Shown here: piece after piece, positions 9,325-48,095 of the stretch
Position numbering within the stretch: position 1 is the stretch's first letter
Layout: each line of letters opens with the position of its first letter
NCBI GenBank assembly: GCA_963733675.1
Contig: CAVTET010000001.1
Span: forward strand, 576,001 to 640,000
Length of the DNA: 64,000 nt
Reading direction: 5' to 3'
Source: an uncultured Methanosarcinaceae archaeon
GTDB taxonomy: Archaea > Halobacteriota > Methanosarcinia > Methanosarcinales > Methanosarcinaceae
Program-made: the position numbers and the translations under genes
The notes under the pieces: generated by a model
Databases searched by the model: none
What the model was told of the DNA's origin: nothing
Seen by the model: only the letters and a program-made list of their open reading frames with translations

Positions 9325-9949
9325 TTTATTTCAGTCGAATACCCCGCAGCTCGCTGCAGGGATGGAAAATTTCCCCGATAACCGTTGTTAAATAATAAAT
9401 TTCTATTTTTGCTACATTTGTACTGTAAATGGAACTAAGACGTGCAAACCATTGTGTATATAATATAAGATACCACATGGTTTTTTGTTTGAAGTACCGT
9501 AAAAATCTTTTTTAGGGACAGAACTCATAAACTTTTTGAAAAACGTATGCTTTGAAATTAGTGAAAGATACTGTTTTGAGTTTGATACAATTGGTAGTGA
9601 TGGTGATCATGTACATATTTTTATTGGAGCTGAACCAAAGTATTCTCCTTCAAAAGTCATGCAAATTATAAAAAGTATTATAGCAAGATAAATCTTTAAA
9701 CAATGCCATGAAATCAAAAAACAGCTTTAGGGTGGTGAACTGTAGAGTGATGGAGGTTACATTGGAACTATAGAAGATGGAACAACTTCAGATGTTATCA
9801 AAAACGATGTTGAAAATCAGGGAAACAGGGAAGAAAAAGAAGCATATCAGCAAATGAAAATACTCGATTTTTAATAGCCATTACAACCAGAGTGGTGGCG
9901 CGAACATACCCCGTTGCTTGCAGCGGGGTGCGCCAGCACAACTTTGATT
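9325..9949 (+). mobile_element. tnpA: IS200-type element, tnpA (9429-9874) inactivated by a frameshift and two TAGs
   Basis: YHMVFCLKYRK, HUH motif DHVHIF, QL*GGEL*SDGGY; subterminal hairpins CCCCGCAGCTCGCTGCAGGG and CCCCGTTGCTTGCAGCGGGG. Confidence 0.9.
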
Positions 9950-28921: not shown

Positions 28922-29840
28922 ATATAAACTGAATCAATTTTGGGGTGCTTTCGCCAACAAAAAGCTAGGGGAAAGATAATCACTATGCTGAGATGTAATT
29001 TTGTTATAAATGGGGTTTTACACAAAAACTATGTATTTCTTTCGGTTTTTTTTCACATTAAATCAGCAATGTACCGAAAGTTCTGTAAAATCTGATTGAC
29101 TCTGTATCCTTTTTCTTTCAGCATAATAAAGGTGAGAAGTCAATTGTTAATATCAAAAAAGATCCGTCATGCGAGACATCTGCTGCATGGGCAATCTGCA
29201 AAAAGGAAATGTGTAATCATTACCCCAAGCGAAGAATATGAGTAAATGAAAATATTTGATTTTGAATAATTCCTTTATATTTAGAGCGCCATACACTTTG
29301 ATTTTGAAAAATGGAATATTTGTCGTCAGCTTTTCTTAAATATAAGTTCCGTATTTATTATTCTCTTTGTTTTATATTCATTGAATAATAATATATGGTT
29401 GATACAACTTGAAATCACTTTTCATTGGCATATCTAGCTTATTCCAAAATTGAGTGATTTTTAAATTTTTTGATTGAAAATCTGAACTCATAAAAAGAAT
29501 TCAGCCTCCGATCAAAATTAACATTCGATATTTAGAAGTCTCAATCCAGAAGTATAATTCGAGTGTTGGAGCAAATTTCAAAACCGAGTGATTTTAATTT
29601 TACGTCAATCACTAAATTTTGGTGCTGAGCAGGTATGTATATGAAATTAGAGAAGATTTTAATAAACTTCTGATTTTTCACTAGTTGTATGTAAACCAGT
29701 TATACACATGTGATAAAATTCGGTAGGTTATTGAAATTTCAGAACTTACACATTTAACAGCCCTTTTTTTGCTGTTCAACTACGTAAGTCCTAAGCCGAT
29801 TTACATTGTATCAAATTGAATAAAGTGGGAGTGTAAACAA

Positions 29841-30182
29841 ATGTTGAAACTTGGAATGAAAAAGGTACTCACAGTTTTGCTGTCAGTCCTTTTTGTAGTA
29901 TCGTTGACTGCAGCGGCAGCAAGTGCACATGATGGTAATCGTGGTAATCGTGGTCACGGTGGCTTTGGTGACGGCTTTGGCTTTGGCGGCTATGGTATGG
30001 GCTGCGGCGGCTGTGGCGGCTTTGGCGGCTGTGGCGGCTTTGGCGGCTGTGGCGGCTTTGGCGGCTGTGGAGGATATGGAATGGGTTATGGAGGATATGG
30101 AATAGGTTGTGGATATCCTTGTGGACTTGGCATGAACTATCCTTTCTACCCTTACTACCCCCCAATTAATATTATACTCTAA
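29841..30182 (+). CDS. Secreted Gly/Cys/aromatic-rich small protein with (GGCGGF)n repeats
   Basis: Signal peptide ending ASA; 18-bp tandem repeat ggcggctgtggcggcttt at about 30006-30070. Confidence 0.8.
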   Translation: MLKLGMKKVLTVLLSVLFVVSLTAAAASAHDGNRGNRGHGGFGDGFGFGGYGMGCGGCGGFGGCGGFGGCGGFGGCGGYGMGYGGYGIGCGYPCGLGMNYPFYPYYPPINIIL

Positions 30183-30944
30183 TTAATATATATTAGGGAA
30201 AATTCCGATATATATTTGCTTTAAACAACCAGCATAAATTATGATTTATCGGAATTTTCTATAGTTTTTTTGTTGCTTTATAACTCATTTTTGCTCTATA
30301 AATTGTTTTTATTGTTATTGCTAAGCCTTTTGCGATATCTGTACTGACATTATGTTTTGTAAGTCATCTATGTGAATATCACGAACATCAAAGGAAACAT
30401 TTATAGATATTTTTGTTTGATTTTTTTTATGGGTGTTATTGGCGATGAAATTTTCTATAGATTATTGGTAATAAGGTGGTGGTTTATGTGTTTGATGCCT
30501 ATTTTTTAAATAAAGAAAATCAGAGAAATATTTTTATAAAAATTGTGATATGACTAATTTAAAGTAAAGTAAAAACATTGCTGACTTCAGCTAAAACTGA
30601 TAAAAGAGGTGGATTTGTTATATAAAACTTGTGCATAGACAAAAATTGAAAAGTTCCTTTTCTGGTTGGATTAGATTTATAAGAGCCGTTTATTTGTGTT
30701 TTGCATTCGATTCGATTTCTTTTTTATGATCTCGGTATCTTTTTTTCTTTAATTTGTTATTAGTTTCAGTGTTTTTTCGGTTTCTTCTTTTTCCCTTTTC
30801 TCCCGTCCATCAGTAAAAACAGTGTCATCAGATGTTTTGTCAGTAATACTATTGGCTCTGCATCCTACTTTTTGCAGTGAAAGAAAAGGATAATGGAAAG
30901 GTCTTATTTTACAGAACTTCATCTACCCTGTTTCCACAAATCGG

Positions 30945-31259
30945 ATTTATTTCAGTCGAATACCCCGCAGCTTGCTGCGGGGATGGAAAACTTCCCCGAT
31001 AACCGTTGTTAAATAATAAATTTATATTTTTTGCTACATTTGTACTGTAAATGTAACTAAGACGTGCAAACCATTGTGTATATAAAATAAGATCTCACAT
31101 GGTTTTTTTGTTTGAAGTACCGTAAAAATCTTTTTTTAGGGACAGAACTCATCAACTTTTTGAAAAACGTATGCTTTGAAATTAGTGAAAGATACTATTT
31201 TGAGTTTGATGCAATTGGTAGTGATGGTGACCATGTACATCTTTTTGTTGGAGCTGAAC
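30945..31259 (+). mobile_element. tnpA: IS200 element, left half (interrupted at att core)
   Basis: Near-identical to 9325-9634; similarity stops after GTTGGAGCTGAAC. Confidence 0.92.
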
Positions 31260-31284
31260 TAACATAAATAACTGTATTGTTTAT
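31247..31284. other. attL (core plus element arm)
   Basis: GTTGGAGCTGAAC-taacataaataactgtattgtttat; arm is an inverted repeat of the attR arm. Confidence 0.88.
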
Positions 31285-31309
31285 CTAGGATAAATTCTAT
31301 TAAGTTAGT

Positions 31310-32445
31310 ATGAGTAATTCGAAGATCTTAAATGATTACTTAAGGAAGTGCCAAGCAGATGGACTTACGGAAGAGACAATTGCAACTGCTGAATATACAC
31401 TTATAAAGTTCATATAATGGTGTGGAGATCGAGAATTAAAGGAGTTTACAACAGACGATGTTTACGATTATCTGGATTTTATAAATGCCTATACATACAT
31501 CAAAGCTGGTAAGGCCGTTAAATACTCACCTGGTACACAGCAACGAATTAGAACTGTTTTGAAAAAATTCTTGACCTTTATAAATCATGAACTAGGAGCC
31601 GTAATAAAGTTACGAACGCTAAAAAATGGGAAAATCCCCGAAGATATTTTGACTCGCGAAGAAATTGAAAAATTAATTGATTCATGTCGAAGTAACAGAG
31701 ATCGGGCTATAATTGCTACTTTTTATGAAAGCGGAGCTAGAAGGGGGGAATTACTAACAGTTCAACTTAAACATGTGACTTTTGACGAGAATGGGGCAAT
31801 CCTCAATATCCAAAAAGGGAAAACAGGAAGTCGACGCGTTAGGCTTGTATTAGCTTCATCTTACCTTAAACAGTGGATTGACACGCATCCATTAAAGAAT
31901 GATCTTGATGCTTACTTATTCTGTTCGACTAATTCTCCTTTTGGAGTTATCACATTTGTAGGACTTGCAGATCAACTACACAAAATAGCAAGTAGAGCAG
32001 CTATCCAGCCAAAAAGAGTTTATCACATGCTTTTAGACATGCCAGAGCAACCCACTTAGCCGAACAATTACCTGAACAACTTTTGAAAGAATATTTAGGC
32101 TGGACAAAATCAAGTAATATGGCGAGTATATATGTGCATATGTCAGGCCGAGATGTGGATAATGCTATACTTAAGTTGCATGGAATCGAGACTGGAGAAG
32201 CTACCAAAAAATTCATTGTTAATAAATGCCCACGTTGTAAGGAAATGAATCCAGAAAATGCTTTATTTTGTTTTAAATGTGGGCTGCCACTTACGCAGGA
32301 AACTGCAACAACAGTAGAATTCGTAAAAACCGATTATATGCAACTCGCAAATCTAGACGAAATTAGAGAAATGAAAAATACATTAAAACAGGAGCTAGAA
32401 GAAATCTCTAAGCTGAAAGAGATAATGCTTAAAGCTGGAAAATGA
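31310..32445 (+). pseudogene. Tyrosine integrase with C-terminal zinc ribbon; TAA at 31415 and frameshift near 32025
   Basis: ESGARRGE, KGKTG, reconstructed HAFRHARATHLA, LGW...YVH, CPRC/CFKC. Confidence 0.9.
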
Positions 32446-32475
32446 TTTATATATAATTTATAAGGAATTATAATT

Positions 32476-33666
32476 TTAAGGAGTCCTTACTTTTGCTATA
32501 CATTTTTCAAAGAAATTATTTAAAAAAACACCATAATCTTCTGATGAAGGCGACCTGTATTTATCCGGCTTCGCATCCATTATATTAAAAAATTTACTAT
32601 TTTCTTGCACGAATTCTTCTTCTTCGATGGAAATTGTTCCGTCTAGAATATCTCTCTGAAAGCAGTGGTCGAAAAGTAGCTCAATACCTATTATTTTTCT
32701 GTCGTGCTCAAAAGTTATTATTTGCAGTATTTCACGACACGTCTCTTTCCAATTTTTATCCACTAAGATTCTGTTAAATATCTCTTCCGACATTTTTTTT
32801 ACCAAATTAGCCTGGTCTACTAGCATTTCATTAGGTTTTTCTAGTAACTCTGTATGCATATCTTTAAGCACGTTCAGAGCTATTATTTTAGATGCCATTT
32901 TAAATGATATATTTGCTATCATTAATTTATAAAGTTCTTCAATTGATATTTTTCCATATTCTGTCGGCAATGACACTTCTACTATTTTCTGAAACGTTTC
33001 TTCTAACATCTCAATATCTGCGGATAATTTCAAAGATTTTTGACAAATCTTCGATTTCAGTGAATCGTTTATGCATTCATTATAAACATCCAGCCAAATA
33101 TTTGGGTTGGCTATAATCTTTTTCATGAATTTAACGTAAAGTTTATTAGTCGGATTTTTGACAGTTAATACGGATGTCCAGTAAGTAGCGCCTATGGATA
33201 ACCTACAAATTTCGTCAGCTTTGTTATATAAAGTTTCAACCTCGTTTTTTAAGCATATATCAAAAAAGGAAACCGATAAAAGCAACTGGATACTGTACTT
33301 CTTAGCAATAGTAGTATCTAGATTTAAACCGCGTTGTTTGCTGATTATATTTAACGATTTTTTATATATGTTTAATCGTATGTCAGGGAACTGAATTCTG
33401 ATATTTTTTAAATTTTCAATTCTTTTTATGTCCCACCTATTAGCTAATCCAGGCTTCGCTGGGATTTTTTCTATACACGAATAAGGGCGGTATTGCAAAT
33501 CTCTAAGATGCTTTTTTATGTTCCCTTGATCTTTTATCTCGTATTCTCTCGCCAGAAATTCTCTTATTTCTGGCTCTGGAACAGGTCCATCACTACTTAT
33601 AATAAATTCAAGTATTCCAGCTTTGGCCTCATTCCATTTGAGGTGATCTCCTTGACTTCTTCTCAT
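32476..33666 (-). CDS. Hypothetical protein with probable N-terminal winged-HTH (element regulator)
   Basis: ILEFII...EPEIREFL...IKKHLRDL; divergent from the AbrB-like gene. Confidence 0.6.
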   Translation of the reverse strand: MRRSQGDHLKWNEAKAGILEFIISSDGPVPEPEIREFLAREYEIKDQGNIKKHLRDLQYRPYSCIEKIPAKPGLANRWDIKRIENLKNIRIQFPDIRLNIYKKSLNIISKQRGLNLDTTIAKKYSIQLLLSVSFFDICLKNEVETLYNKADEICRLSIGATYWTSVLTVKNPTNKLYVKFMKKIIANPNIWLDVYNECINDSLKSKICQKSLKLSADIEMLEETFQKIVEVSLPTEYGKISIEELYKLMIANISFKMASKIIALNVLKDMHTELLEKPNEMLVDQANLVKKMSEEIFNRILVDKNWKETCREILQIITFEHDRKIIGIELLFDHCFQRDILDGTISIEEEEFVQENSKFFNIMDAKPDKYRSPSSEDYGVFLNNFFEKCIAKVRTP

Positions 33667-33810
33667 ATGCTATAAAATATGCTATATGGTATAATAAATC
33701 TATGTATTATTTCTTTATTGCAATTACTGCTCATTTTTTAATAAAAACCATATGGTATTATTATTCTAATATTTTTACGGTATGTTTAAATATTAAAATT
33801 AACATGTTGT

Positions 33811-33996
33811 TTGACGGTGATGAAAATCAATTTCAATTTCGGAAAAAGAAAAATTCAAAAAGTTAGGTATTCCTTCTTAATTCCTTTGCCTATTGATTGG
33901 GTCAACAGCATGAAACTTGGTAAAGGTAATTTGCTGGAAATTGAAATGCAAGAAGACTATAGTTTGAAGATAACCCCGGTTCCACAGGCCCGGTAA
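33811..33996 (+). CDS. AbrB/MazE-like DNA-binding protein
   Basis: RKIQKVRYSFLIPLPIDWVNSMKLGKG..LEIE. Confidence 0.75.
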   Translation: MTVMKINFNFGKRKIQKVRYSFLIPLPIDWVNSMKLGKGNLLEIEMQEDYSLKITPVPQAR

Positions 33997-34052
33997 GACT
34001 CTGAAGGAACCAGGAGCACAACACCAACCAACCAAAAGAAGGAGATGTCGGC

Positions 34053-34202
34053 ATGAATAATATGACACCAAAAGATATATCTTTTACCTCATGGGCGAAA
34101 CAAATCTGCATCAAACATACTGAAATTTTAGATCGCATGAGAAAAAGTACTGATCCACTGGGAAGGGCAATAGCAGTTAGAATTATAAAAACGCAGGAGT
34201 AA
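34053..34202 (+). CDS. 49-aa hypothetical protein (missed by ORF track)
   Basis: GGAGA RBS; MNNMTPKDISFTSWAKQICIKHTEILDRMRKSTDPLGRAIAVRIIKTQE. Confidence 0.6.
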   Translation: MNNMTPKDISFTSWAKQICIKHTEILDRMRKSTDPLGRAIAVRIIKTQE

Positions 34203-34716
34203 TTGAGCTTTAAAAAGAGAAATAGGGTATGTAGATTACCCTGGATCACACAAAGGGAAGGAAACTGATTGAAAAAGTCTTACAGTAGATAATATCATTT
34301 TACCTTATTTAATCCTTCTATGTGTGATTTTCTCTTCTTTTTGCTACTGCGGGAGTTGAAAATATGTCATTCAACCCAGACGAGTTTTTCTGTAAACGTT
34401 TGTATATTTTATTTAGTGTCCGGATGAAAGGAAATAAAATCCAGCTCAATATAAATTATTATAATAAGTTTATTCTTTATAAAGCTTTCACTAAAGTAAA
34501 CTGGTTGCCGTCCTATATATGGATCACACGTTCTGCATTTTCAAAGCTCAGGTGGTTCTGAATGACTGCCCGAACCTTCATTAAACCTTGCAAGAAACAG
34601 TCTTCTTCTATCTGCAGTATAAAACTCTGCTCTGAATGTTGTGAAGCGCGGGAAAAGGAGAATTTTATGAGGGCTTTATTCATTTTAAGCCTAATTTTAC
34701 CCCAGGAAGTTTGACA

Positions 34717-36452
34717 ATGTCTTCGGATTCTATTTTCGCTCAAATGGATATTGTCAAAATAATTAGATCTTATGGGATTAACCTAATCCGAGAAGGTAAT
34801 ATGTATTACGGATCAATTCCACCTGTGGGGCAAACCGGTAAAAGTTTACATGTTTGGGCTAATGCAAATACCTGGTTTTGCAACAAAAACCATGTAGGTG
34901 GGGGTATTCTTGATTTTATTCAATATATAGAGAGAGGACTTACTAAACGGCAAGCACTTGAAAAAGCGGCAGAAATTTCAGGAGTTCAACTTGAGCCATT
35001 CTCTGATGAGCAAATTAATAAGCTTGAAGAAAAAGAAGATGTTTATAACACTCTTACTGCACCTGCAAATATCTACCACACAAATTTGACTAATGATCGG
35101 TACAGTTTCATTTTCAATCGATGGGGAATTACCAGAGAATCAGTGGATGATTGGAACTTGGGATATGCTTCCACTGAACGAAATCTTGAAGGCATGGATC
35201 CTAAAAACTTGATCAAAGCTGGCTTAGTGAATATTACTGATACTGGAAATATGGGGAGAATTCTATAGAGGTAGAATAATTTTTCCTTACCTTATCGATG
35301 GCACGATTCAATATATGGCAGGCAGAGTAACTCCTGATACTCCAGATCATGATAAAGGAGCGAAATACAAATATCTGCGAATTAAATCTGAAACAAAAAA
35401 TGAACAGATATCTGAATTTATCAACAAAAAGGGATTTTTTTGGGGAAGATCGAATAAAGAGTGCAGATTTCTGCTTTATTACTGAAGGACTTGCGGATTG
35501 TATTGTAGCCAATCAATTTGGCTTTCCTTGCCTAGCTTTAGGTTCTACGGGGATATCAAAAGAATGCCAGGAACATTTGATTCATTTACTAGGCGAAAAA
35601 AAATGTGTCTACCTATGCTTTGATAACGACGAAAACAAAGCAGGGCAGAAGGGAGCCATAACAATAGGACAAATTCTTTTCGATGCCTGTATTCAAATTA
35701 AAATTATTGATCTCCCTTCTGGATCAAAAAAAATGGATATTGCAGAATTTATGAAAGATAGAGAAGCTAAAGACTTTGAATTATTAAAAAAAGAGGCTTT
35801 TAGCTTCATAAAATATACATTAAACCTCTGTTCTGTATCTGACTCTTTGCCAGAAAATTACAAAACTGCTGAGTCTTTTGTGTGTGATAGACTTCTTAAT
35901 ATCCAAAATCTATATAGAGATGCCTATATTTCCGATGAGATAAAACAGCACTTCAATTTCCAAAATAAACAAAGAGATAACCTTATTAAGCAAGCTAATG
36001 GGTGGGTGCAAAATGGAAAAGAAAATAATAAAGTCGTAGAAGACGACAATGGAGTCGAAGAAATAGACCATCTTACGTTAGATTTGATTACATCCCTTGA
36101 AATTCAGAAAGAAACAGGATTGTTAGCTTGTGAAAAATGGGTTAGTAATAATAAGATCAGTATTGCAAAAGTCCCTCCAGAATTATTAGCCAAAAAGTTG
36201 GTGGGCCTAAGGGAAAAAAGATATAACTACAGCAATTTTATCCATTCAATTAAAGAAACGTTTCTGTTACAGTCGTATGAAATAGAAGAAATTTACCAGA
36301 AAATACTTGGAATTAATAAAGGGTATTATAACGAAAAAAAACGATTAAATAAAATCTTAATCCGGATTCAAAATTATTCTTCACATATAAGAGCGAAAGC
36401 TCAAGATTTATTAAAGTATGGGGACCCCCAAAATTTCATCTATCAAACTTTT
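34717..36452 (+). pseudogene. Bacterial-type DnaG primase (Zn-binding-like + Toprim), frameshifts near 35250 and 35430
   Basis: WFC...GGGILDFI, LGYA, EFYRGRIIFPY...YMAGR (alternate frame), ITEGLAD, LCFDNDENKAG, KMDIAEF. Confidence 0.85.
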
Positions 36453-37239
36453 AGGGCGATTCAGTTGTAAATATCCAAATCTTCAGCAGCAGCCTAGTAA
36501 ATACCAAAAATGGAGAACCATATTTACAGCTGAGCCTGGAAATAAAATAATATCTTTTGACCACTCTCAAATAGAGCTTAGGATATTAGGAGACAAAGCA
36601 GTTGAGCTTGCTTTTATAGAAGCTTTTGCTGCAGGTATGAATATTCATACCCTTACTGCTTCTAAGATCTTTAACAAGCCATTTGATAGTATTCAAAAAA
36701 CTGACAAAGAACGCAGTATAGCAAAAACGATTAATTTTGGTTTACTTTACGGGATGTCCGCTAAAGGTCTGATGAAAAAGTTAAAAACAGACGCTGGGAT
36801 TGAACTAACAGAAAATCAGGCTAAAGAGTACATTCGTACTTTTAAGGTAGCTTATCCTTTCATAAGTAGTTATATGGAAAGAATAAGTCAAGAAGGCATA
36901 CAAAATAGAGAATTAAGAAATGCTGCAGGTAGGCTATTAATTATCGATGACGATATAGATGAGAGTGCTGCCGGTAGGGAAGCAATGAATCTACCTATTC
37001 AATCACTATGTGCAGATATGATTAAGGAAGCTCTTCCCCAAATCCAAGCTAAACTTGAGCCTTTAGGTGTAAAATTCATTAATATCGTTCATGATGAGCT
37101 CGTATTTGAGTGTAAAGATGATCAGGCTGAGGAAGTCTGTACTTTTGTAAAAACAATAATGGAAAAAGTAGGGAATAATTACTTAAAGCATATTCCTTGT
37201 GTAGTTGATGTTAAATCCTCAGATTATTGGCAGAAATAA
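36453..37239 (+). pseudogene. Family A DNA polymerase palm/fingers domain, N-terminally truncated
   Basis: GRFSCKYPNLQQQP, FDHSQIELR, RSIAKTINFGLLYG, NLPIQSLCAD, VHDELV. Confidence 0.9.
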
Positions 37240-37606
37240 ACAACATCTAGTCTTTTGATAATGTCTACTTCATCTTTTTCTATTTCTGGTTCTAACTGAT
37301 ATTTCATGTGGAAACAAGTAATCTATCTTACATAATTAAATTTAAAAATGTTGTTTTTTAACGTCAATTTTATTAGTTTTACCCAAAAATAGGAAACTAT
37401 ATTGAGAAAAAAATAGTTCGTTTTAAATATCTTTTATAAAAATTCAAATTTATTCCATCGAGATTTTCTCCATAACCAACTATTCAAGTGTTAAAATGTT
37501 ATTGTTTACCATTACCATTTTGCATTGATGATAACGTATAAGTACTAATAAATAGTATATAGTAGCGTCGTTTCTTGAAAATTGACGGGCTGGTAGATCG
37601 CATAAC

Positions 37607-37831
37607 ATGAAAGGTGATAACACAAGATTTCAACAGAAATTTACAGAAGATATGTTCCTGAATGCTCTATCAATTGACAGCATCAAGTCCAGTGCGACTA
37701 TTATGAATCTAGTAGGATGTAGCAGGTCCACAGCTAAAAACATGCTTTACAAGCTTGTAACTGAAGGGAAAGTGAAAAAAATAGGAATTGAAGGCGACGG
37801 TTACGGTTGGCAGAAAGTAAAAGATGATTAA
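37607..37831 (+). CDS. Small winged-HTH protein
   Basis: IMNLVGCSRSTAKNMLYKLVTEGKVKK. Confidence 0.7.
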   Translation: MKGDNTRFQQKFTEDMFLNALSIDSIKSSATIMNLVGCSRSTAKNMLYKLVTEGKVKKIGIEGDGYGWQKVKDD

Positions 37832-38117
37832 AATGAGTTTTATTGACAACAAGAAGCAAGAAAGCGATCCGGAATTTGTGTTGCAAATAATGCCGGAATT
37901 AAAAGAAGATTATCTCAAAGATCGTCCGTGCAAGTTGGAAAAAGATTCGATAGAGATTTGGAAAGTCGTAAGTGTACTTAATGGAGATTGTGACCTACCA
38001 ATCGAGCAACAATCTTTTTCATGCACTCAGGTACTTTTTGATAAAGAAGGCGAAGATAGATATTTAAATTTATGCGAACAAGCAATGCAAGAGAAAGGAG
38101 TTGCGTTTGATCAATAA
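37824..38117 (+). CDS. Hypothetical protein
   Basis: Overlaps the stop of the previous gene; operon-like. Confidence 0.55.
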   Translation: MIKMSFIDNKKQESDPEFVLQIMPELKEDYLKDRPCKLEKDSIEIWKVVSVLNGDCDLPIEQQSFSCTQVLFDKEGEDRYLNLCEQAMQEKGVAFDQ

Positions 38118-38782
38118 TTGGGTACTATTCATAAATTGGATTGCACTATAGTCAATGAAGGTGGTGATACAGAAGTAAAACCTGTGTTTTTGCTGATTGA
38201 TTCAAAAATTTATCATGAGATAGATTGTAGACATCTACCTGAAGAGTTGTTAAATAAGTTGCTATAAATTGTATGTACCTTGTTTTAATAGAATTGTGGG
38301 GAAAATCAAAATCTTCCTTACTCATTTAGTATTTTAGTATCATTTCTTTGATTATGTGATCAACATTAACATTATTTAGCTTAAGTTATCCTAACTACTC
38401 TAAATACCCTAGACTAAAGAATATGAAATTTATGTGAAAACATTATCCTAAAATTTAAGTACTATATAGCAAATATAAGTTATATATTTTTTATGTGATA
38501 AAAGTGTATGCCAAATATCTCGTGGTTAGTTACCGTGCATGTCAGTAAAGATCATGGGAAATAAAAAAGGTCAAAAAAATGACTTATTATGAGATCAGTG
38601 GTGAGACTTTTATTTAAAGTTTGGTTTGTGAATTATTGCCATACTCAAAACAATCGCTCTTAGAGCCGGAGACCGGCTCAGATTTGATAGCTGTGAACCT
38701 CACTTCTATACAAAACAAAACGAACTAAATATTCAAATACAATACTAGTTAATATTAATTAAAAAGTAAACAAGGTGATAAT

Positions 38783-39234
38783 ATGACTCGTCCTTCTAAA
38801 CTCACTCCGGAAATACAAAAAAGAATCGGTGATAATATTGCACTCGGTTTGACTTATAGATTGGCTGCCGAGTCGGTTGGTATAACCTATAAAACGTTAA
38901 ACGAATGGAATCAGAAGGGGCAGACTGAGAAATCTGGGAAATACTATAAGTTTGCACAATATATCCAAAAATACAATGCTAATGCCGCAAAAGCTCTTTT
39001 GGAACGCATAAATGAATCAGCAAAAGCTGGTGATACGCAAATGTGTACTTGGGGATACTTGAACGCCGTTTTGCGTCAGACTTTGGACGTCGGGTATATA
39101 AGAAAACGAATGTTGTTGCAGAAAATTTGAATCAGAATGTTGAGATAATAGTTCAGGACACAGATGCAATTCGAGAAGAAATTCTAGCAAAGTTTGATCG
39201 GGTTGAAGAAAGTAATGAGTTATTAACTAGTTAA
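38783..39234 (+). pseudogene. HTH/terminase-small-subunit-like protein with frameshift near 39050
   Basis: RPSKLTPE...AAESVGITYKTLNEW; WILERRF motif split across frames; AGGTGA RBS. Confidence 0.65.
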
Positions 39235-39317
39235 GGTTTTTCATTCTAACTTAATCCATTTTTAATAGAAAATATTTTACTATTTATTCTTATCAATGGG
39301 CATAATTGTAGTCGAAC

Positions 39318-39528
39318 TTACCAAAATCTCAACCAAGGTTTCTTAGCTCTCGGAGCTTCAATTGACTTCTGAGTGATGAGTGTTTGAACTTGCATCATAT
39401 AATTCGTGTGCATGTTCTTGATATCTTCAAGTTCTTTTTTAATGTTGCAATATGATCATTCAAAAATCTGTTTTCAGCATCCATGGACTCAAATTCTTTT
39501 TTGTATCCTGATGTCTCACAACTATCAT
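39318..39528 (-). pseudogene. Coiled-coil protein C-terminus truncated by MITE
   Basis: KELEDIKNMHTNYMMQVQTLITQKSIEAPRAKKPWLRFW-TAA. Confidence 0.65.
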
Positions 39529-39678
39529 GGTTCAGTTGCAAAAATAATATTTCTGCATTTTGACACTAGAATTCTCACCTTTAAGTGCCATTTTCTTTCT
39601 AATGAAAATGATTAGTTATCCTAATTATAATGTTTTTCACTGGTTTTGTAAAATAGTCAGATTTTTTGCAACAGAACC
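39529..39678 (+). mobile_element. 150-bp MITE with IS6-type TIRs, copy 3 (more diverged)
   Basis: ggttcagttgcaaaaa...ttttttgcaacagaacc. Confidence 0.88.
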
Positions 39679-39769
39679 TATTTTGCTTACATTACTTCAA
39701 AAAATTTATATTCACGCAATTTTTCCCTACGGCCCTATAAGTTCCCAAAGTCTTATCCAGTAGCAAGCT

Positions 39770-41098
39770 ATTGGGTATTTGACTAAAATAAAGAAAGTAT
39801 TAGGTTTTTCTCTTTACTAGAAGTACTTCCTTTTCTTTTCCAATAATTTCAACTTTTTCTTTAATTCCTATTTCCTCCTCAGACTAGCTTGCCAGTATTC
39901 TCCATTATACCGGACAAGTCCTGACTTTCCTTGTCCCAGAGGATCTATTGTTTGGGCTGTATCACCGATGATTGTTCCTATAACTGGCTTTTTCTTTCGG
40001 ATCTCGGTTACTTTATAAATTGCGAAGACAAGGAAGAGCCCGAAGACAATCGTAGGGATGATAACTGTCAAAGTCATAAGTCTTATGAATTCGCGAGTAT
40101 AGATGTTTTCAGCTCCCGTAGGTACAAAGAGTACACTTCCTATTATAAGACTGATGAAACCGGCAAACCCGAAAATTCCGAAGCCTGGAATTTTAATTTC
40201 CAGGATAAGAAGCCCTATCCCTATAATTATGAGAAAGATTGCACCCACATTTATATTAAACCCTGTACCTATCAACCCAAGTACTATCGCAATGATTCCA
40301 AAAACTTCTACCCCTGATCCAAGATTTGAAATTCCAAAGATAATCCCAGAAAGCCCAATGATTAGGAGAAGAGAGAATTGGATTTGAGATTAGCTCCAAG
40401 AAAGCAAGAGAAAGAGAAGGTTCATAGTTTTCAATGCTGAAGCTTTCAGTTCTGAAAATCTTTCCTTTCACAACCTTTCCGTTGATCTGGATCAACAAAT
40501 CGGAGATAGAAGGAGCTATATATTCTATTACACCTGTGTCTAGTGCTTCTTGCGCGCCAAGATTTTTGTTTTTGGTTATAACTTCTTCTGCAAAGGTCTC
40601 ATTTCTTCCGTGTTTACTGGCGATTGTAACCGAATATTTGACAAGGGCATTTATTATCTTTTCGTCTTCTATTGGTTTTGTCCCTTCTGCAGATATCTAC
40701 ACTGGCTGCGCTGAACCAATTACAGTGAAAGGAGCCATTGCAGCAATATCAGTCCCCATCAAAATAAAAGTACCAGCTGACTAAGCTTTCCCACCCTCAG
40801 GCACATATCCAATAACAGGAACCGTTGTATTCCCAATTCTCTTTATGATTGCCTGTGTTTCTTCCACCCCTCCTCCAGGTGTGTCAAGGCTAATTACAAG
40901 AGCTTCAAAGCCTTCATTTTCAATTTTCGCTATTGCATTAGCTATGATATCATCTGAAGCCGGGATGATGGCTCCTGAAATTTTAAGCACAAGCATCTTA
41001 TTGTTAGATCCTGTCGCAACAATGGAACCAAAATTGGCTATAAGAATGGAGCATAAGAATAAAACAAAGAGGAAACGTGTAACCCTTTCCATAAGCAT
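39770..41098 (-). pseudogene. nfeD: NfeD membrane-bound serine protease with two in-frame TAGs and frameshifts
   Basis: LDTPGG, GKA*SAGTFILM, GSAQPV*ISAEG, GEYWQA; adjacent to stomatin. Confidence 0.85.
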
Positions 41099-41151
41099 GT
41101 TTGTAGGTCCTTTCTTGCCCTTTACTTTTCTTCAGACTCTTGTTTTCATCT

Positions 41152-41931
41152 TTATTGTTCTTTCTTTCTAGAAATAGTCTGAGATAAGGCTGCTATGTTT
41201 CCGGTTTCAAGAGCTTGAGACTGAGTAACCACTATTAAATTCTTTTCACTAGCAATCTCGACAAGAGTCTGCAATTCCCTAAGTTTGATCGCTGTCGGTA
41301 ATTCCTGATAGAAAGCTGCTGCTTCCGACATTTTCTGTGCAGCTTGAGATTCTCCTTCTGCAAGGATTATTCTTGAACGTTTTTCTCTTTCAGCTTCAGC
41401 TTGTTTGGCAATAGCTCTTTTCATCGTATCGGGCAACGATACATCTCTAATAGTAACCGCTGTAACCTTAATTCCCCATGGGTAGGTGTACGCATCCAAG
41501 AGTTCCTGAATTCGCTTGTCGATACGTTCTCTCTCAGAAAGCAGTTCGTCGAGTTCCATCTGACCCAGCACATCCCTAAGTGTTGTCTGTGAAAGCGTGA
41601 ATGTTGCAAACTTATAATTCTCAACCTGAGTTACAGCGGCTCCCGGCTCAATTATCTTATAATAAACAACGGCATCGACATCAACCGTAACGTTGTCTCG
41701 CGTAATTACTGCCTGTTTAGGAATATCAATAGTAACAACTCTAAGGTCTACTTTAATCACTTTATCGACAATCGGAATAATTAGAAAAATACCAGGTCCC
41801 TTTACTCCACTAAGACGACCTAGCCTAAAAATAACTACTCTCTCATATTCGTTAACCATTTTTATGGATTGTGAGAGTATTAAAAATACAACTATTAATG
41901 CTGGAAACAACAAGGCACTAAAGCCAACCAT
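41152..41931 (-). CDS. SPFH/band-7 stomatin-like protein
   Basis: EYERVVIFRLGR, QTTLRDVLG, AKQAEAERE, LRELQTL. Confidence 0.93.
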   Translation of the reverse strand: MVGFSALLFPALIVVFLILSQSIKMVNEYERVVIFRLGRLSGVKGPGIFLIIPIVDKVIKVDLRVVTIDIPKQAVITRDNVTVDVDAVVYYKIIEPGAAVTQVENYKFATFTLSQTTLRDVLGQMELDELLSERERIDKRIQELLDAYTYPWGIKVTAVTIRDVSLPDTMKRAIAKQAEAEREKRSRIILAEGESQAAQKMSEAAAFYQELPTAIKLRELQTLVEIASEKNLIVVTQSQALETGNIAALSQTISRKKEQ

Positions 41932-41986
41932 AATCTACCACATCCAGTTTCATAACCTTTAGTTTCGTGTTTTATAACATCTAGTT

Positions 41987-42475
41987 TTATAATACTTGAC
42001 TGAGATTTAATAATACATTTTCAGCAGTTTCTTTCCTTACAACAAGGACCGCTATTTTCGAGTGTTTGACCACCTTTTCTGCTACGCTTCCAATAAGGAA
42101 TCTCTGAATTGCGGATTTCCCGTGTGAACCCACAACGATAAGATCAATATCGTTTTTTTCTGCAAAGTCAATAATCTCAACTGCAGGGCTTCCTTCTAGA
42201 ATAATGGATTCGACCTCAACATTTGTGGCTCTACCAGCGTTTTCGACATAAGTCGTTGCTTCCTGACCTTCTTGCCTGAGGTGCTCTCTCATTGCTTTTT
42301 CCCATTCTGCATCTATATATGGAGATATTGAATAACCCCCTACTGCAATCACATATGTAGCATACAGCTTTGCCTCGCTAAACTTTGAAATTTCAATTGC
42401 AGAATCAACTGCTTTTCGAACTAGTTCCGAGCCGTCGGTTGCAATCATTATCTTCTTGTAAACAGTACTTTTCAT
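41987..42475 (-). CDS. Universal stress protein
   Basis: KKIMIATDGS, DLIVVGSHG, IGSVAEKVV. Confidence 0.93.
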   Translation of the reverse strand: MKSTVYKKIMIATDGSELVRKAVDSAIEISKFSEAKLYATYVIAVGGYSISPYIDAEWEKAMREHLRQEGQEATTYVENAGRATNVEVESIILEGSPAVEIIDFAEKNDIDLIVVGSHGKSAIQRFLIGSVAEKVVKHSKIAVLVVRKETAENVLLNLSQVL

Positions 42476-42710
42476 ACCTGATTCTCCTTTTCTCTTTTTT
42501 GTTTCTTTCTTCCGGTTCTCAGTTTTATTTATCAGATAACTGCTCCAATTTCACCAATAAAGAAAAATCCAAAAATACATGAGTGTACTCGAGAAGATTA
42601 CACCAAAAATAAGCACTAATATGAATAGCAGTTTTTAAAACATTTAAATAAATATTTATAAAAATAATTGCGGTGCGAAACAAAGTTCTCTACGCACCTT
42701 TGGAAAGGCC

Positions 42711-43088
42711 TTACTTTTTCGCTACAACTATTACAGTTCCTTTCATATAAGGATGAATAGAGCATTCATAATTATAGGCTCCGGGTTCGGTAAACATATA
42801 TTCATAATTTTGTCCTTTGGATATTATTCCAGAAGTGAATATGGTCCCGCTTACTGCATGGTCAGCTGAGTCCATATTAGTCCATTTTACTGTATCCCCT
42901 ACAAATATTTTGACCGATTCAGGCTTAAAAGCAAAGTTCTGAATGATCACATCTACAATCTGACCACTGCTAGATATGCCACCATTGCCTTGTGCACTCA
43001 TTGCTATGCCTATCAACGATACCACAAAAAAGACTAACAGCAAAAGAATCAGTACATTTTTCATTATACTAGATAATTGTTTAAACAT
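42711..43088 (-). CDS. Secreted cupredoxin (plastocyanin/amicyanin-like)
   Basis: GDTVKWTN...H; YECSIHPYMKG type-1 Cu ligands. Confidence 0.9.
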   Translation of the reverse strand: MFKQLSSIMKNVLILLLLVFFVVSLIGIAMSAQGNGGISSSGQIVDVIIQNFAFKPESVKIFVGDTVKWTNMDSADHAVSGTIFTSGIISKGQNYEYMFTEPGAYNYECSIHPYMKGTVIVVAKK

Positions 43089-43772
43089 TCATTTCACCAG
43101 TTTGTTAAAATAAATAATTTTAATGGATTTTGTCTTCTGTGACCTATTAGATCTACCACAAATCAATTGGTTGATAAAGTACATAACCAAAATTTAATCA
43201 TTTCCTGAAACTTTTAAATGTCAAGTATAAATTCTTTTTATTTAGATCGTTTTTTCTACTAATTCTATATAAAATTTAGAAGCATCTGATAAAATTGAGG
43301 TGGGTCTCAAAATTTTTTAGGCTAAAGTATACAAATATTTTCTTTGAATTATTTAAATTTAATTCTAAAAAAAATAGTATTCAAATAAAACTTACTTTCC
43401 CATGAAATATTTTAATATTGAACAACAATTTGATATTAATGAATTTTTATACTTTACCTTTCTAATGACAGGGTACCTAAAAATCTTGTAGGGAAAATCT
43501 GATCGACTCTGCACACTTTTTATTTGTCACAAATTATCAATCAATCACCAAAGAAGTACTAAATTAATATGCTATTTATTGCTTTTTAATTACCTTAAAT
43601 AAGACTTACTCATCCAAACTTCCACATCAAACAATTTTGTCAATATGATACAAGTTTAATTAATTTTTATTACATCCTTCCAATAGATACGATTTTAATT
43701 TGTATTAACAATATTAGGACTTACTCATTTGAAGCACAAAATAAATAGCATTAAACCAATTATTTTATAAAA

Positions 43773-44474
43773 TTAAAATTTTAACTGCGACGTTAAAGAT
43801 ATACCTTGGGAACCTTTATCTCGGAAACCCTTATTTTGACAATTTTTAAATCCGTCAATGTATCCTTGTTTATACTTCACATTGTATCCGTCAGCATACC
43901 CTTTATCGTAGGGAATATTGCTCTTCGATGCCATATTTATATTTGTGTTTCCTCCGTTATTAGGTAATCCAGTCCTACAATCTTTAACTCCGGCGGTATT
44001 TCCGTCGTTATATCCTACATTTTTTGCTTCAGTTGTTCCAACTATGTATCCGTCCGAATAAGTTGTAGTTATGGGAGTGAAAACCTGAAGACCTTCGCTT
44101 TGACAATTTTTGTATCCGTCAATATATCCTTGTTTGTACTCTAGCTTGTATTTAATATTGTGGCCATCAGCGTATCCTATATCATAGGCAGCATCGCTCT
44201 TAGGTGCCATGTTGATGTTTGTGTTTCCTCCATTATTAGGTAATCCACTCTCACAATCATTAAATCCAGCGGTATTTCCGGCGTTGTATCCAGCAGTATT
44301 TGCATCATTTTCTCCGATTGCGTATGCGTAATTATAATTTTGTTTCGACTCGGGCCCCCACCGCAGGTTCAATGATGCACTTATCGATGCAGCTGTCAAT
44401 GACATTACAAAAAAAACTAATAGCAAAATAAACAGTAATTTTTTTACTCTGGCAAATGTTTCCTTATCCATCAT
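43773..44474 (-). CDS. Secreted protein with two tandem GYxxG-rich Cys-containing repeats
   Basis: Signal peptide; GYNxGNTAGxxDCxxGLPNNGGNTNINMA...YKQGYIDGxKNCQ occurs twice; start uncertain. Confidence 0.7.
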   Translation of the reverse strand: MMDKETFARVKKLLFILLLVFFVMSLTAASISASLNLRWGPESKQNYNYAYAIGENDANTAGYNAGNTAGFNDCESGLPNNGGNTNINMAPKSDAAYDIGYADGHNIKYKLEYKQGYIDGYKNCQSEGLQVFTPITTTYSDGYIVGTTEAKNVGYNDGNTAGVKDCRTGLPNNGGNTNINMASKSNIPYDKGYADGYNVKYKQGYIDGFKNCQNKGFRDKGSQGISLTSQLKF

Positions 44475-45526
44475 TAGATCTCCGTGTGTTTGCAAAATTA
44501 GATATGTTTCTACAACAACTTGTTTGCTTACCGACTGTTTACTATTAAGTAAACTTTTCATCTTCAGATCTACTACAAGAATGTATAATTACCATCGAAT
44601 CGTGAAGGATGGATGGTTCAGTAGTCATTTATAGAGTTAGCAATATTCCTTAAAACAGTATTTTTTTGATTTTAAGAATATAAGTTATCAAATGTACTAT
44701 TCATCTTATATACAATTACTATAATATTTTTACTTCATTCTAATTTTTGATATGAAAAAATATATGTAAGCAAAAATTACATTCACAAATTAAATATGAT
44801 AAAGGCCTATAATTCTTGGGATTAGTGCCAATTTACCTACTTTGATCAAAATTAATTCCCAAATAAATAATACTTTTAAGCACAAATTGAAGAATACATC
44901 CTAACATTAATTCGAGTTATTCAAACAAAGTTTCAAAGCATAGTAAAATAAACTAATGTATAAACATAATTACATCACAGTTAACGAAAAATTGTCAAAT
45001 AAATTACCGAGTTGAAACATTTCATGGAAATCATCCTTTTCTCTTTCTGGTCTCGATTTTGATAAAGATCGTACTACGGTTTCTTCCAGAATAATTATAC
45101 CCGCTAAACCATCTACGAAGTATGCGATCTAAACCCTCCTTAGCAACTCTAAAATCATTTAAGGGAGCAAATATCTATTTATGTAACCGGTTGAGAACCT
45201 TACATCACGCCTATCAGTAGCCAATCCGTTGGTCATATTTATGTGCACAAGATTTGATACTACATCTGAATTCACGTGTCTGAGAAAATACCAAGAGATA
45301 TATTCCTCACATGGAGATAAAAGTGAAATCAATCCTATAGTTTTGGTATCAGAAACCGTAACCAGACTGAAACTAGGTACATAAAGTCAAACATAAATTC
45401 ATAAATCAGAAAGATATTGGATGGATATATTCTACTTGCGGTCTTGCAAAGTCACCGAATAAATATATGTTTATTATTTTACTGAAGAAATATTATTTAA
45501 TCTTCAAGCAATAATAAACGAAAGCT

Positions 45527-45564
45527 GTAAACAATATAGGTATTTATGGTAGTTGGAGCTGAAC
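45527..45564. other. attR (element arm plus core)
   Basis: gtaaacaatataggtatttatggta-GTTGGAGCTGAAC. Confidence 0.88.
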
Positions 45565-45878
45565 CAAAGTATTCTCCTTCAAAAGTCATGCAAATTATAA
45601 AAAGTATTATAGCAAGATAAATCTTTAAACAATACCCAGAAATCAAAAAACAGCTTTAGGGTGGTGAACTGTGGAGTGATGGAGGTTACATTGGAACTAT
45701 AGAAGATGGAACAACTTCAGATGTTATCAAAAACGATGTTGAAAATCAGGGAAACAGGGAAGAAAAAGAAGCATATCAGCAAATGAAAATACTCGATTTT
45801 TAATAGTCATTACAACCAGAGCGGTGGCGCGAACATACCCAGTTGCTTGCTGCGGGGTGCGCCAGCGCAACTTTGATT
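45552..45878 (+). mobile_element. tnpA: IS200 element, right half
   Basis: Near-identical to 9623-9949, including the right-end hairpin. Confidence 0.92.
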
Positions 45879-45950
45879 GAATCTATTTATAAAGTTCCTT
45901 TATTGTACCATGCATATGTTATCAGATTTACTTATTTAGATAAAATACTT

Positions 45951-46697
45951 TTATTGTGCCAAGCTTTTGAATTGTGGGTTAATTTCAATCGCTTTATCAT
46001 ATGCTTTTTTTGCTTCATCGGATTTATTCAAATTATCAAGAGCGGCTCCTTTATTATACCAAGCCATTGGATTCTGTGGGCTGATTTCAATTGCTTTATC
46101 ATATGCTTTTATTGCTTCATCAGATTTATTTAAATCATTTAGAGCAATGCCTTTGCCTGTCCAAGCCATCGAATCCTGCGTGTTGATTTCAATTGCCTTG
46201 TCAAATGCTTTTATTGCTTCATCTGATTTTCCTAAATTCCCTAGAGTGTATCCTTTACTGCCCCAAGCAATTGGATCCTGTGGGTTAATTTCAATTGCTT
46301 TATCATATGCTTTTATTGCTTCATCTGATTTATTTAATTCATTTAGAGCAAATCCTTTATTTTTCCAAACCGTTGAATTCTGCGGATTAATTTCAATTGC
46401 TTTGTCAAATGCTTTTATTGCTTCATCTGATTTGCCTGATAGGCCTAAATCAATTCCTTTAATATTCCAAGCCGTTGAATTATGCGGGTTAATTTCAATC
46501 GCTTTATCCTGCATTTTTATGTCATTTTCAATTGCTTTATTTAAATCAGAGACATTGTTGCTGCTGGAGTTCGGAACATCTGTAAGTTGTGCTGCACCTG
46601 CTATACTAACAAGGATCAAAAACGCCAGTGTAGTGATCCCTAGAACTTTCAGAATTGTATGCTTTCTACTTATTTTATCATATTTAGTTTCGTTCAT
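45951..46697 (-). CDS. Secreted TPR-repeat protein
   Basis: Five or more 34-aa repeats W..KG..L..L.KSDEAIKAYDKAIEINP. Confidence 0.9.
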   Translation of the reverse strand: MNETKYDKISRKHTILKVLGITTLAFLILVSIAGAAQLTDVPNSSSNNVSDLNKAIENDIKMQDKAIEINPHNSTAWNIKGIDLGLSGKSDEAIKAFDKAIEINPQNSTVWKNKGFALNELNKSDEAIKAYDKAIEINPQDPIAWGSKGYTLGNLGKSDEAIKAFDKAIEINTQDSMAWTGKGIALNDLNKSDEAIKAYDKAIEISPQNPMAWYNKGAALDNLNKSDEAKKAYDKAIEINPQFKSLAQ

Positions 46698-48095
46698 TTT
46701 CAGTCTCTCGATGTTTGTTCAGATATTAATGCTGAAAAATAACTACAAATTGCATATCCATAGAAAATTTCGATAAACCATTAATTTTCACGGGATATTT
46801 ATAGACATTTATAAGCATATGACGAAATTTATGTATTTATCGAAATCTGCTATAATTATCGCTGATTAATTATAAAATCTTTTGCATATTATATCTTAAA
46901 TTCTGTACAACAGTTGTAACTACTTCGATACATTGAACCTTTATTTATATTCTTTCATCATGAACTGTATTGAGTGTATTTCCACAAATGTTGAATTTTT
47001 TGTTCATACCAACTTACCTTGTAGGTTATAATATAACATCAGCTATTGTTTCAATCAATGTCGCAAAGTCCTGTAATTCTTCACGATAGGAGCTAGAAGC
47101 AATCGCTTAAACTGTTTCCTGAAGAACTAGGGCAGAACGGATTGGAAACAATAAACACGAAGAGCATAGGCTGATTCTAAAAAAAGCAAAATTAATCCAT
47201 AGTTGAGACGTATGAGGCACATCCAAATGACAGATTTAGAGTATAGAGCCAAGGTTTATGAAATTCTTAATATGTGAGAAATGGATTATGGAACCGAATA
47301 AACTTATAAATGTATTGATTAGAAACAAGTCAAATGCCATAATTAGAGAATGACTAGCCACATAAAGCCTGAGAACTCAGAAAAATGTGATTATAAATAT
47401 GCCAGAGTTGAACAGCAAATATATTCATGGTAATAGAACTCAAAGCAGGAAAAAAGGTGGCTCAGGTCACCAAAAGAAGAATCATTACAGATTTTACACA
47501 ATTCTTGAAAATTATCACTATCATAAAATATCATGAATCCTAATTAATCTGGTTGGTTATGTATAATCTCAGATCTACAAAGAGAGATCATTTTATGAAA
47601 CATTCAGCGAGGGTGGAGCAAAACAGATTTTTGACAAAATTTAATTTCATTACACTACTGAATCAGAGGTCAATGAACTAGCAATCAAAGTGATGTATAT
47701 GAATGTACTGATAGATTGGTAACATGGCGACATTTACCCATTAAGTGGTTACATGGACAAATAGAATCAATAGCAATAACAAAATAAACTGGAAGTTTAC
47801 AATTAATCATGCTAATAGAAAACTATTGGAGTATTATTTGATTATTCATCATAAAATAAGCAATGGGTATCTTCAAGTTGATTAGAAGATACCCAAGTAT
47901 CATGTTCAATGGTTAAATTGCCCTGATGCTAGTAATGCGATTCCAAATTATTTTCACAAGCATGGCTTTGGAATATATCCCAAATCAATTAATTTACCCT
48001 TAAACAAAGGATTTATTTTGAAATCGACTCACTAGTTTTTCAGTTAAATCTCACAGGACTATATAAATTACTATAGATAAAACGAACATATATTA

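Follow-up and report, generated by a model that had tools for sequence, protein, structure and literature searches.

The 64-kb window described here (the whole stretch of DNA that was analysed) belongs to the draft genome assembly of an uncultured Methanosarcinaceae archaeon (G000; 3.92 Mb in 15 contigs, 92% complete). Within it, a copy of the insertion sequence (IS) IS200 is interrupted at 31259/45552 by a 14.3-kb insert, which is surrounded by a perfect 13/13 direct repeat of the core GTTGGAGCTGAAC (Table 1). An uninterrupted IS200 copy of 625 nt from the same window was used as a BLAST query against the whole G000 genome. Window positions 30946-31262 matched IS positions 1-314 (94.3% identity) and 45553-45878 matched IS positions 300-625 (97.2% identity), and deleting 31260-45564 therefore gives back a colinear IS200. 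The translation of the left half ends in ...SDGDHVHLFVGAELT* (also given as ...DHVHLFVGAELT*), which places the break directly after the HUH motif of the transposase gene tnpA, DHVH in the split copy. The first-pass annotation of this DNA had described a split IS200 whose halves share the core and rejoin colinearly, a site directly after the HUH motif and a tyrosine integrase starting 50 bp inside the left attachment (att) site, attL. All three statements were borne out, the integrase ATG at 31310 lying 50 nt beyond the core.

The core 13-mer was found 16 times in the 3.92-Mb assembly compared with 0.05 occurrences expected from base composition, a repeat far beyond chance, and 16/16 occurrences are in IS200 context (eight uninterrupted copies, five left junctions and three right junctions). 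The site in the uninterrupted reference copy is identical to the core at 12/13 positions. The two element arms beside the core are reverse-complementary to each other at 21/24 positions, the left (P') arm being conserved across all relatives, and the chromosomal IS partner matches the arms at just 8/24 and 9/24 positions beyond GTT/AAC and the overlap. Neither a tRNA gene nor an Rfam family was detected in the window, and IS200 lies on both sides of the insert; a tRNA or structured-RNA target was rejected on the basis of these negative searches.

Table 1. Features of the split IS200, the insert and related loci. Positions are those of the window unless a genome and contig are named; C1 is a contig of G000.
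Feature	Position	Strand	Evidence
Uninterrupted IS200 reference copy, site unoccupied, reading ATTGGAGCTGAAC	9325-9949	+	
IS200 left half: left-end hairpin and 5' degenerate tnpA to ...DHVHLFVGAE, ending in the att core	30946-31259	+	BLAST, translation, PF01797 at C1:607106-607258
attL copy of the 13-bp core GTTGGAGCTGAAC (GTT, 7-nt overlap, AAC)	31247-31259	+	
Left (P') arm; TATTGTTTA at 31275-31283 mirrors TAAACAATA of the right arm	31260-31299	+	
Tyrosine integrase pseudogene: TAA at 31415-31417, 1-nt deletion near 32023	31310-32445	+	
396-aa open reading frame (ORF) without Pfam match	32476-33666	-	
Small AbrB/MazE-fold DNA-binding protein, candidate regulator	33811-33996	+	PF04014, E 3.8e-05, slightly below the curated cut-off
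DnaG-type primase in two ORFs: CHC2 zinc finger (34711-35268), Toprim (35349-36470)	34711-36470	+	
Family A DNA polymerase domain protein, 273 aa	36418-37239	+	PF00476, E 2.7e-63
Small helix-turn-helix protein resembling terminase small subunit	38783-39130	+	phrog_4102, E 1.2e-15
NfeD gene in fragments	39868-41098	-	
Cargo: SPFH/Band 7 protein (41152-41931), universal stress protein, Usp (41987-42475)	41152-42475	-	
Cargo: cupredoxin (42711-43088), 262-aa repeat protein (43773-44561)	42711-44561	-	
Conserved non-coding right (P) arm; TAAACAATA at 45528-45536	45192-45551	+	
Right attachment site (attR) copy of the 13-bp core	45552-45564	+	
IS200 right half: 3' tnpA with inherited TAA and TAG stops, right-end hairpin	45552-45878	+	BLAST, PF01797
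Clean Y1 transposase genes of the DHFHMIFTSKP lineage	G080:C13:90134-90499; G019:C109:59297-59662; G032:C18:14133-14498		

The same junction recurs elsewhere in the genome. Five attL (C1:607259, C1:1159502, C3:665293, C8:278 and, on the minus strand, C4:2424; contigs without a genome label are those of G000) and four attR (C1:621552, C5:39991, C5:327966 and C12:236438) were identified, all at IS positions 300-314. The IS200 subfamily concerned (>=88% identity) comprises 10 uninterrupted or nearly full copies, two internal-deletion derivatives, four left halves ending at position 314 and four right halves starting at 300-302, while the fifth left junction belongs to a divergent C4 copy with only ~70-77% identity to the other IS200 copies of the genome. 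All five left junctions run into one integrase module, 97-98% identical over ~1.24 kb. The eight outer flanks (four left and four right, 400-700 nt) are without mutual similarity, C8 having no outer flank, and the IS halves flanking different copies stem from different IS lineages. In paralogous ACR3-like genes, the sequences that make up the left flank at the C1 end and the right flank at C5:40318 run on without a break, so that the junctions at C1:1159502 and C5:39991 enclose a single insertion, at least 43 kb in length. This insertion (C1:1158788-1162445 plus C5:1-40717), in an IS200 that is itself inside an ACR3-like gene, carries genes for ArsA, an ArsP-type permease, ACR3, thioredoxin/DsbD and ABC proteins.

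Right ends of related elements are more numerous, with ~19 in G000 that all stop at one base. Four abut the target IS, two a divergent IS200 at the same codon and two an IS200-like left-end hairpin region in reverse orientation, and the rest other sequences; examples outside the window are C11:13767, C1:119308, C6:22528 and C4:487930. The two ends that abut the reverse-oriented hairpin region have the core GTTAGTTAATAAC, a hint that IS200 may offer a second docking site.

Fifty-nine genomes of the genus were searched with a 321-nt probe that spans the left junction and includes the IS left half, scoring being limited to 12 candidates per genome. The probe matched 36 of the 59 genomes, and at least seven matches outside G000 cross the junction (two in G080 and five in G082). 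Of 15 regions examined, two were not assigned. In 6/15 the integrase is immediately preceded by TnpA homology, and integrases 93-94% identical to the intact paralogue were found directly behind IS200 left halves at G080:C13, G082:C8 (twice), G082:C6, G082:C1 and G082:C18. G082:C21 has the same junction at a contig end, the IS-like flank at G080:C4 is only ~30 nt long, four of the 15 regions contain decayed integrase remnants at non-IS sites, and G080:C16 has an intact integrase (88%) at a non-IS site. Together, G080 and G082 have at least eight attL and seven attR, the latter with IS200 right halves. In G082, the elements of C18 (17.1 kb) and C21 (13.3 kb) are complete, with GTTGGTTCTGAAC at both ends (13/13). 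What they have in common with the window element is limited to the integrase module, the right arm and the terminase-small-subunit-like region. The overlap differs with the IS lineage (GGAGCTG, GTTGCTG, GGTTCTG or GGTGCTG), and both ends match wherever both are known.

Public metagenome contigs were searched with a degenerate (IUPAC) pattern of the left arm. The search recovered 11 attL, eight at the same IS200 tnpA codons (seven by tblastn and one by eye) and three at non-IS sites. Two pairs among the eight IS-flanked loci have identical flanks, which leaves ~6 distinct loci, and no right end was found at the 11 loci within the contig stretches examined. In genome contigs the pattern gave 13 matches, all in G080, G082 and G032 and in no further genomes, and in a viral contig collection it gave none. 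The first-pass annotation had named repeated flanking of integrase homologues by split IS200 tnpA as evidence that would support targeting, and with five attL and four attR in G000, at least eight and seven in two further genomes and 8 of 11 metagenome attL, always at the same codons, such flanking was found. These data also bear on the possibility of a chimeric join between an IS200 repeat and an unrelated island during assembly. In favour of such an artefact, the region is repeat-rich and several other copies are at contig ends, but both window junctions are inside one 1.16-Mb contig and the same junctions were recovered from other genomes as well as metagenome contigs of other collections, making an artefact highly improbable.

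Two lesions interrupt the reading frame of the window integrase, a TAA stop at 31415-31417 and the loss of 1 nt near 32023. The fragment at 31559-32059 is recognized by PF00589 (E 9.9e-11, 42.2 bits versus a cut-off of 27.1). The stop replaces a GAA found in the four other G000 copies, and 4/5 G000 copies have a whole, intact gene that starts 50 nt from the core. The intact paralogues are 378 aa long and have a C-terminal zinc ribbon, and integrase homologues carry PF00589 with or without PF13495. Alignment of one intact paralogue (P0001, 378 aa) to XerA (4a8e) accounted for all catalytic residues, with R in ARRGEL, K in GKTGSRR, HxxR in HAFRHARATH, W for H in LGWTKSS and Y in SIYVHMS. Integration leaves the gene in one piece beside the att core, as in classical elements and not those of the Sulfolobus spindle-shaped virus (SSV) type. 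For 10 intact integrase genes from the wider family, six of them IS-flanked, the ratio of nonsynonymous to synonymous substitution (dN/dS) was 0.08-0.23 in every one of the 45 pairwise comparisons, and the gene is therefore maintained. Between IS-flanked genes of different genomes dS was 0.17-0.40, and the IS site has thus been kept across considerable divergence. Seven IS-flanked integrase proteins, 93-97% identical, form one group in a tree that left out one 36-aa row. Judging from the intact paralogues, the integrase looks functional, with catalysis predicted from sequence. Its C-terminus (32083-32445 in the window) consists of a zinc ribbon followed by a likely coiled coil, with the same zinc-ribbon Pfam families in many homologues, and perhaps has a role in DNA binding or multimerisation.

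Contigs of four public runs (X1-X4; 20 runs were listed and kept as contigs) were mapped to window positions 29500-47000. The contigs of all four carry an extra C at 32023, and T at 31415 is seen in X4 only. The frameshift near 32023 may thus be a minor variant or an assembly error, whereas the stop at 31415-31417 has some independent support. The element interior is present with 0 differences in several run contigs, and coverage of the integrase module, seen as the intact variant, is ~4x that of the interior. In the run contigs, a loose end of 17 letters before 45552 is IS-left sequence; it was rejected as evidence of an empty site, since any uninterrupted IS copy could supply it.

The combined results suggest a model in which the insert (31260-45551) is very probably a decayed member of a Methanosarcina-type family of integrative elements, one integrase sub-clade of which docks in IS200 tnpA. 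The family would move by conservative site-specific recombination, using a classical tyrosine integrase that is not split by integration and presumably a circular intermediate. The element site is predicted to be a near-palindrome, with two ~24-nt mirror arms around GTT-N7-AAC, and exchange within the 7-nt overlap would duplicate the 13-bp core at both ends. In the sub-clade the core corresponds to codons V-G-A-E-(P) of IS200 tnpA, directly after the HUH motif, so that every IS200 copy that keeps the 13 bases would be a docking site. The overlap would set orientation, and through its required identity with the target also specificity; integration was always co-oriented with tnpA. The first-pass annotation had proposed a mobile element that parasitises a multicopy IS. 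Recurrent docking in IS200 upholds this for the sub-clade, but the window copy itself is decayed and its integrase broken.

Several observations weigh against this model. The broken integrase means that the window copy cannot move by itself. The IS-flanked group of integrases has only moderate support (ultrafast bootstrap 81; Shimodaira-Hasegawa-like approximate likelihood ratio test, SH-aLRT, 95), and the tree was drawn as an open fork. Moreover, integrases 75-92% identical to the intact paralogue are found at non-IS sites in G032 (three), G019, G029 and G080, and IS200 is therefore not the sole target of the family. The first-pass annotation had named close homologues at unrelated sites, such as tRNA genes, as evidence that would speak against targeting. 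Such homologues do exist, but none of their sites in these four genomes is a tRNA gene and they fall outside the IS-flanked group. An IS200 location was tried and rejected for these integrases and for homologues with 46-51% identity: blastn detected IS200 in 0/15 regions, and tblastn with a TnpA read-through beside the homologues gave no match better than E 0.87. At the non-IS junctions the element side is conserved up to ...AAC, and on the host side of attL GTT is found exactly 13 nt before the element in 8/13 cases and GT in 13/13. A 20-kb element at a non-IS site (G032:C33) has a 12/13 repeat, and the mechanism of the family thus appears to work also without IS homology. The occupation of GT(T)-N7-AAC non-IS cores by integrases of 75-92% identity makes IS200 targeting a trait of the sub-clade, probably set by the 7-nt overlap.

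The same data could point to an integrase of relaxed specificity that accepts any GTT-N7-AAC-like site and hits IS200 often just because the latter is multicopy, with no dedicated targeting. Such an enzyme would account for the many different non-IS cores occupied by close relatives (75-92%), for the non-IS position of 3/11 metagenome attL and for the fact that only 6 of 19 family right ends in G000 abut an IS200 right half. It would not lead one to expect that the IS-flanked integrases form one group, that the same IS site is kept over dS 0.17-0.40 between genomes, that 3/3 complete IS-borne elements have an identical 13-mer at both ends or that the core 13-mer in G000 occurs solely in IS200 context. 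IS200 has a tiny share of the genome, yet it contains all five left junctions of this integrase type in G000, and we regard relaxed specificity as unlikely.

The remaining points against the docking model concern the assemblies and the reaction itself. The genomes with IS-flanked copies are draft assemblies, 76-92% complete. The C3, C8 and C4 junctions are located where contigs end. With 99.7% identity to C3 over 3142 nt, C8 may be a strain variant of it, and the count of clearly separate left junctions is at least four, not five. In addition, ~63 nt of IS sequence beside the core are identical at C3:665293, C8:278 and C4:2424, although the IS copies are divergent further out. Exchange in a 7-nt overlap does not predict this identity, for which co-conversion, repeat polishing and conservation are candidates. 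The pattern resembles what would be left if IS200 copies exchanged sequence by gene conversion or homologous recombination, a first insertion being copied via the IS halves with no need for an integrase. However, target IS copies with identities down to ~70% (C4), or ~50% at the protein level (G082), would be poor substrates, the integrase is under purifying selection, the same element ends are found at sites without IS homology, and the identical stretch is in a collapsed repeat at contig ends, where it may be a polishing artefact. Copying between IS200 copies is consequently quite an unlikely source of the insertions. Finally, no attP circle junction (right arm, core and left arm) was found in the assembly; a single match to the pattern, at C4:528898, is without the family arms and was treated as chance. 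Among the joints listed for the contigs of X1-X4 none connects ~45551 to ~31260, and contigs cannot show rare circles.

The state of the IS200 targets does not agree with the proposal in the first-pass annotation that the insertion knocks out the IS transposase. PF01797 (Y1_Tnp) matches both split halves and the reference copy, all partial or with stops, and 0 of ~70 matches in G000 are both full-length and stop-free. The tnpA of the split copy and that of the reference copy both have stops or frameshifts, and the TAA and TAG of the split copy's right half are also present in most uninterrupted copies. The stops are therefore older than the insertion, which thus inactivated no working transposase, and the sharing of several stops among IS200 copies implies that the family multiplied on, or was homogenised, after losing its own transposase. 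Docking in dead IS copies would give the element many near-neutral sites. Clean full-length Y1 genes in G080, G019 and G032 occur only in another IS200 lineage (...DHFHMIFTSKP...) that is without the core, and one G080 copy of the targeted lineage has the exact core and is intact save for one T-run frameshift. Two IS200 derivatives, C3:261712-262187 and C3:313804-314280, have the same internal deletion (IS positions 354-502) with both ends and the exact att core kept, and are non-autonomous copies resembling miniature inverted-repeat transposable elements.

Subterminal hairpins are kept at both outer IS ends of the split copy, with -11.7 kcal/mol (z -3.7) for the left-end hairpin and z -2.3 for the right-end hairpin, compared with -5.0 for the latter in the reference copy. 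Both hairpins at the outer borders are what one would see if the 14 kb were passenger DNA between IS ends, moved as a unit by a Y1 transposase. Against such IS200-borne cargo stand the lack of a full-length, stop-free Y1_Tnp among the ~70 G000 matches, the different IS lineages of the halves in different copies and the occurrence of the same element ends outside IS200, and this explanation is very improbable. IS200/IS605 transposition is not known to leave 13-bp direct repeats at a fixed internal codon. The docking model could be extended in a direction that we consider speculative and rather doubtful, where IS200 is more than a parking place. An overlap that tracks the local IS lineage could re-set specificity by overlap change alone, an IS promoter could drive the integrase, which starts ~50 nt behind the truncated tnpA ORF, and the two IS end hairpins kept by the composite could allow a Y1 transposase in trans, or an IS-bearing replicon, to move or spread the whole element. 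If true, this would be an integrative element hitch-hiking on a transposon family.

The gene content of the insert looks like that of an integrative, self-replicating, plasmid-like element with cargo, and none of its genes was seen to encode a capsid, a portal or a large terminase. The window element is a decayed relic and is not active. Truncation of PolA was considered for the polymerase ORF and rejected: its C8 counterpart is also 273 aa long (E 1.3e-62) and adjoins a separate exonuclease ORF, and this equal length makes the window ORF probably whole. C8 also has a 399-aa ORF at the position and strand of the 396-aa ORF of the window. Downstream of the polymerase ORF are small helix-turn-helix proteins, one of them terminase-small-subunit-like; its region is the only interior stretch common to the window and G082 elements (67.9-68.3% DNA identity; L143, L144). 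The region at 38400-39350 has ~30 diverged matches (66-77% identity) across the genome contigs, and belongs to a mobile-element population much larger than the IS200-targeting elements. NfeD paralogues on C6 and at C1:947730-949058 are whole (442 aa), and the fragmented window copy is therefore decaying. The NfeD-SPFH-Usp module (91% identity) and the 262-aa gene recur in a family member on C6 that ends in a divergent IS200, and captured host DNA was for this reason rejected as the sole reading of the cargo. Outside the split IS200, the left flank (29841-30182) is an ORF for a Gly/Cys-rich repetitive secreted protein, and the right flank (45951-46697) is a tetratricopeptide-repeat gene with very many diverged paralogous stretches in the genome.

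The system is a naturally occurring landing pad of a dispersed, near-neutral kind, with eight unoccupied exact sites left in G000. Since closely related enzymes use different cores, it also offers a simple setting in which to ask how a short overlap determines, and changes, the specificity of an integrase. It could give an integration tool for Methanosarcina, whose genomes commonly have this IS (36/59 probe matches). For annotation, the findings are a warning that 'broken IS200' fragments can mark the borders of large islands, such as the island of at least 43 kb with arsenic-resistance genes.

Simple palindromic sites such as loxP and FRT consist of two inverted arms around a short asymmetric spacer that sets orientation, and the site of the window element is predicted to have the same arm-spacer-arm architecture. 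Unlike loxP/FRT recombination, however, the integrative reaction would take place between unlike sites, which have little in common apart from GTT/AAC and the overlap. Group II introns of Methanosarcina home into the ORFs of other mobile introns. They share with the element the host genus and the nesting in selfish DNA, which makes insertions near-neutral, but they retrohome and the element would use tyrosine recombination.

Three published systems offer further comparisons. Thaumarchaeal integrated elements sit within other integrated elements, and piggybacking was suggested to aid their spread (PMC6563490). These are likewise archaeal mobile elements inside other mobile elements, but they are single cases in large elements, with no dedicated transposase-gene att site described in the portions of that paper available to us. 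The closest bacterial concept is an integrase clade that repeatedly targets prophage late genes, giving helper-embedded satellites (PMC10111431), where attB is similarly inside a gene of another mobile element. The satellites are bacterial, use a helper prophage gene and have a proposed regulatory link; the elements described here have an archaeal host, an IS target and no helper relation shown in the present data. In a full-text literature search that included PMC4158269, within the texts available and with supplementary target tables (e.g. Table S2 of PMC6563490) outside its scope, we found no integrase clade that has its att site in a block of conserved codons within the transposase gene of a multicopy IS200. 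Archaeal tyrosine recombinases mainly use tRNA genes, with some intergenic and protein-gene sites (PMC8371274). Like the classical non-suicidal elements of archaea and bacteria, the window element has an integrase gene that adjoins one junction and is left unsplit by integration, a short flanking repeat and variable cargo and replication genes. It is distinct from them in that the target is a codon block of IS200 tnpA and not a tRNA gene, the core is just 13 bp and the interrupted gene is not rebuilt. Because this target is multicopy, one genome carries several insertions of one element type. From its sequence features, including an integrase with the hallmarks of its family, the element thus appears to work as a classical tyrosine-integrase integrative element, and it is the target that differs.

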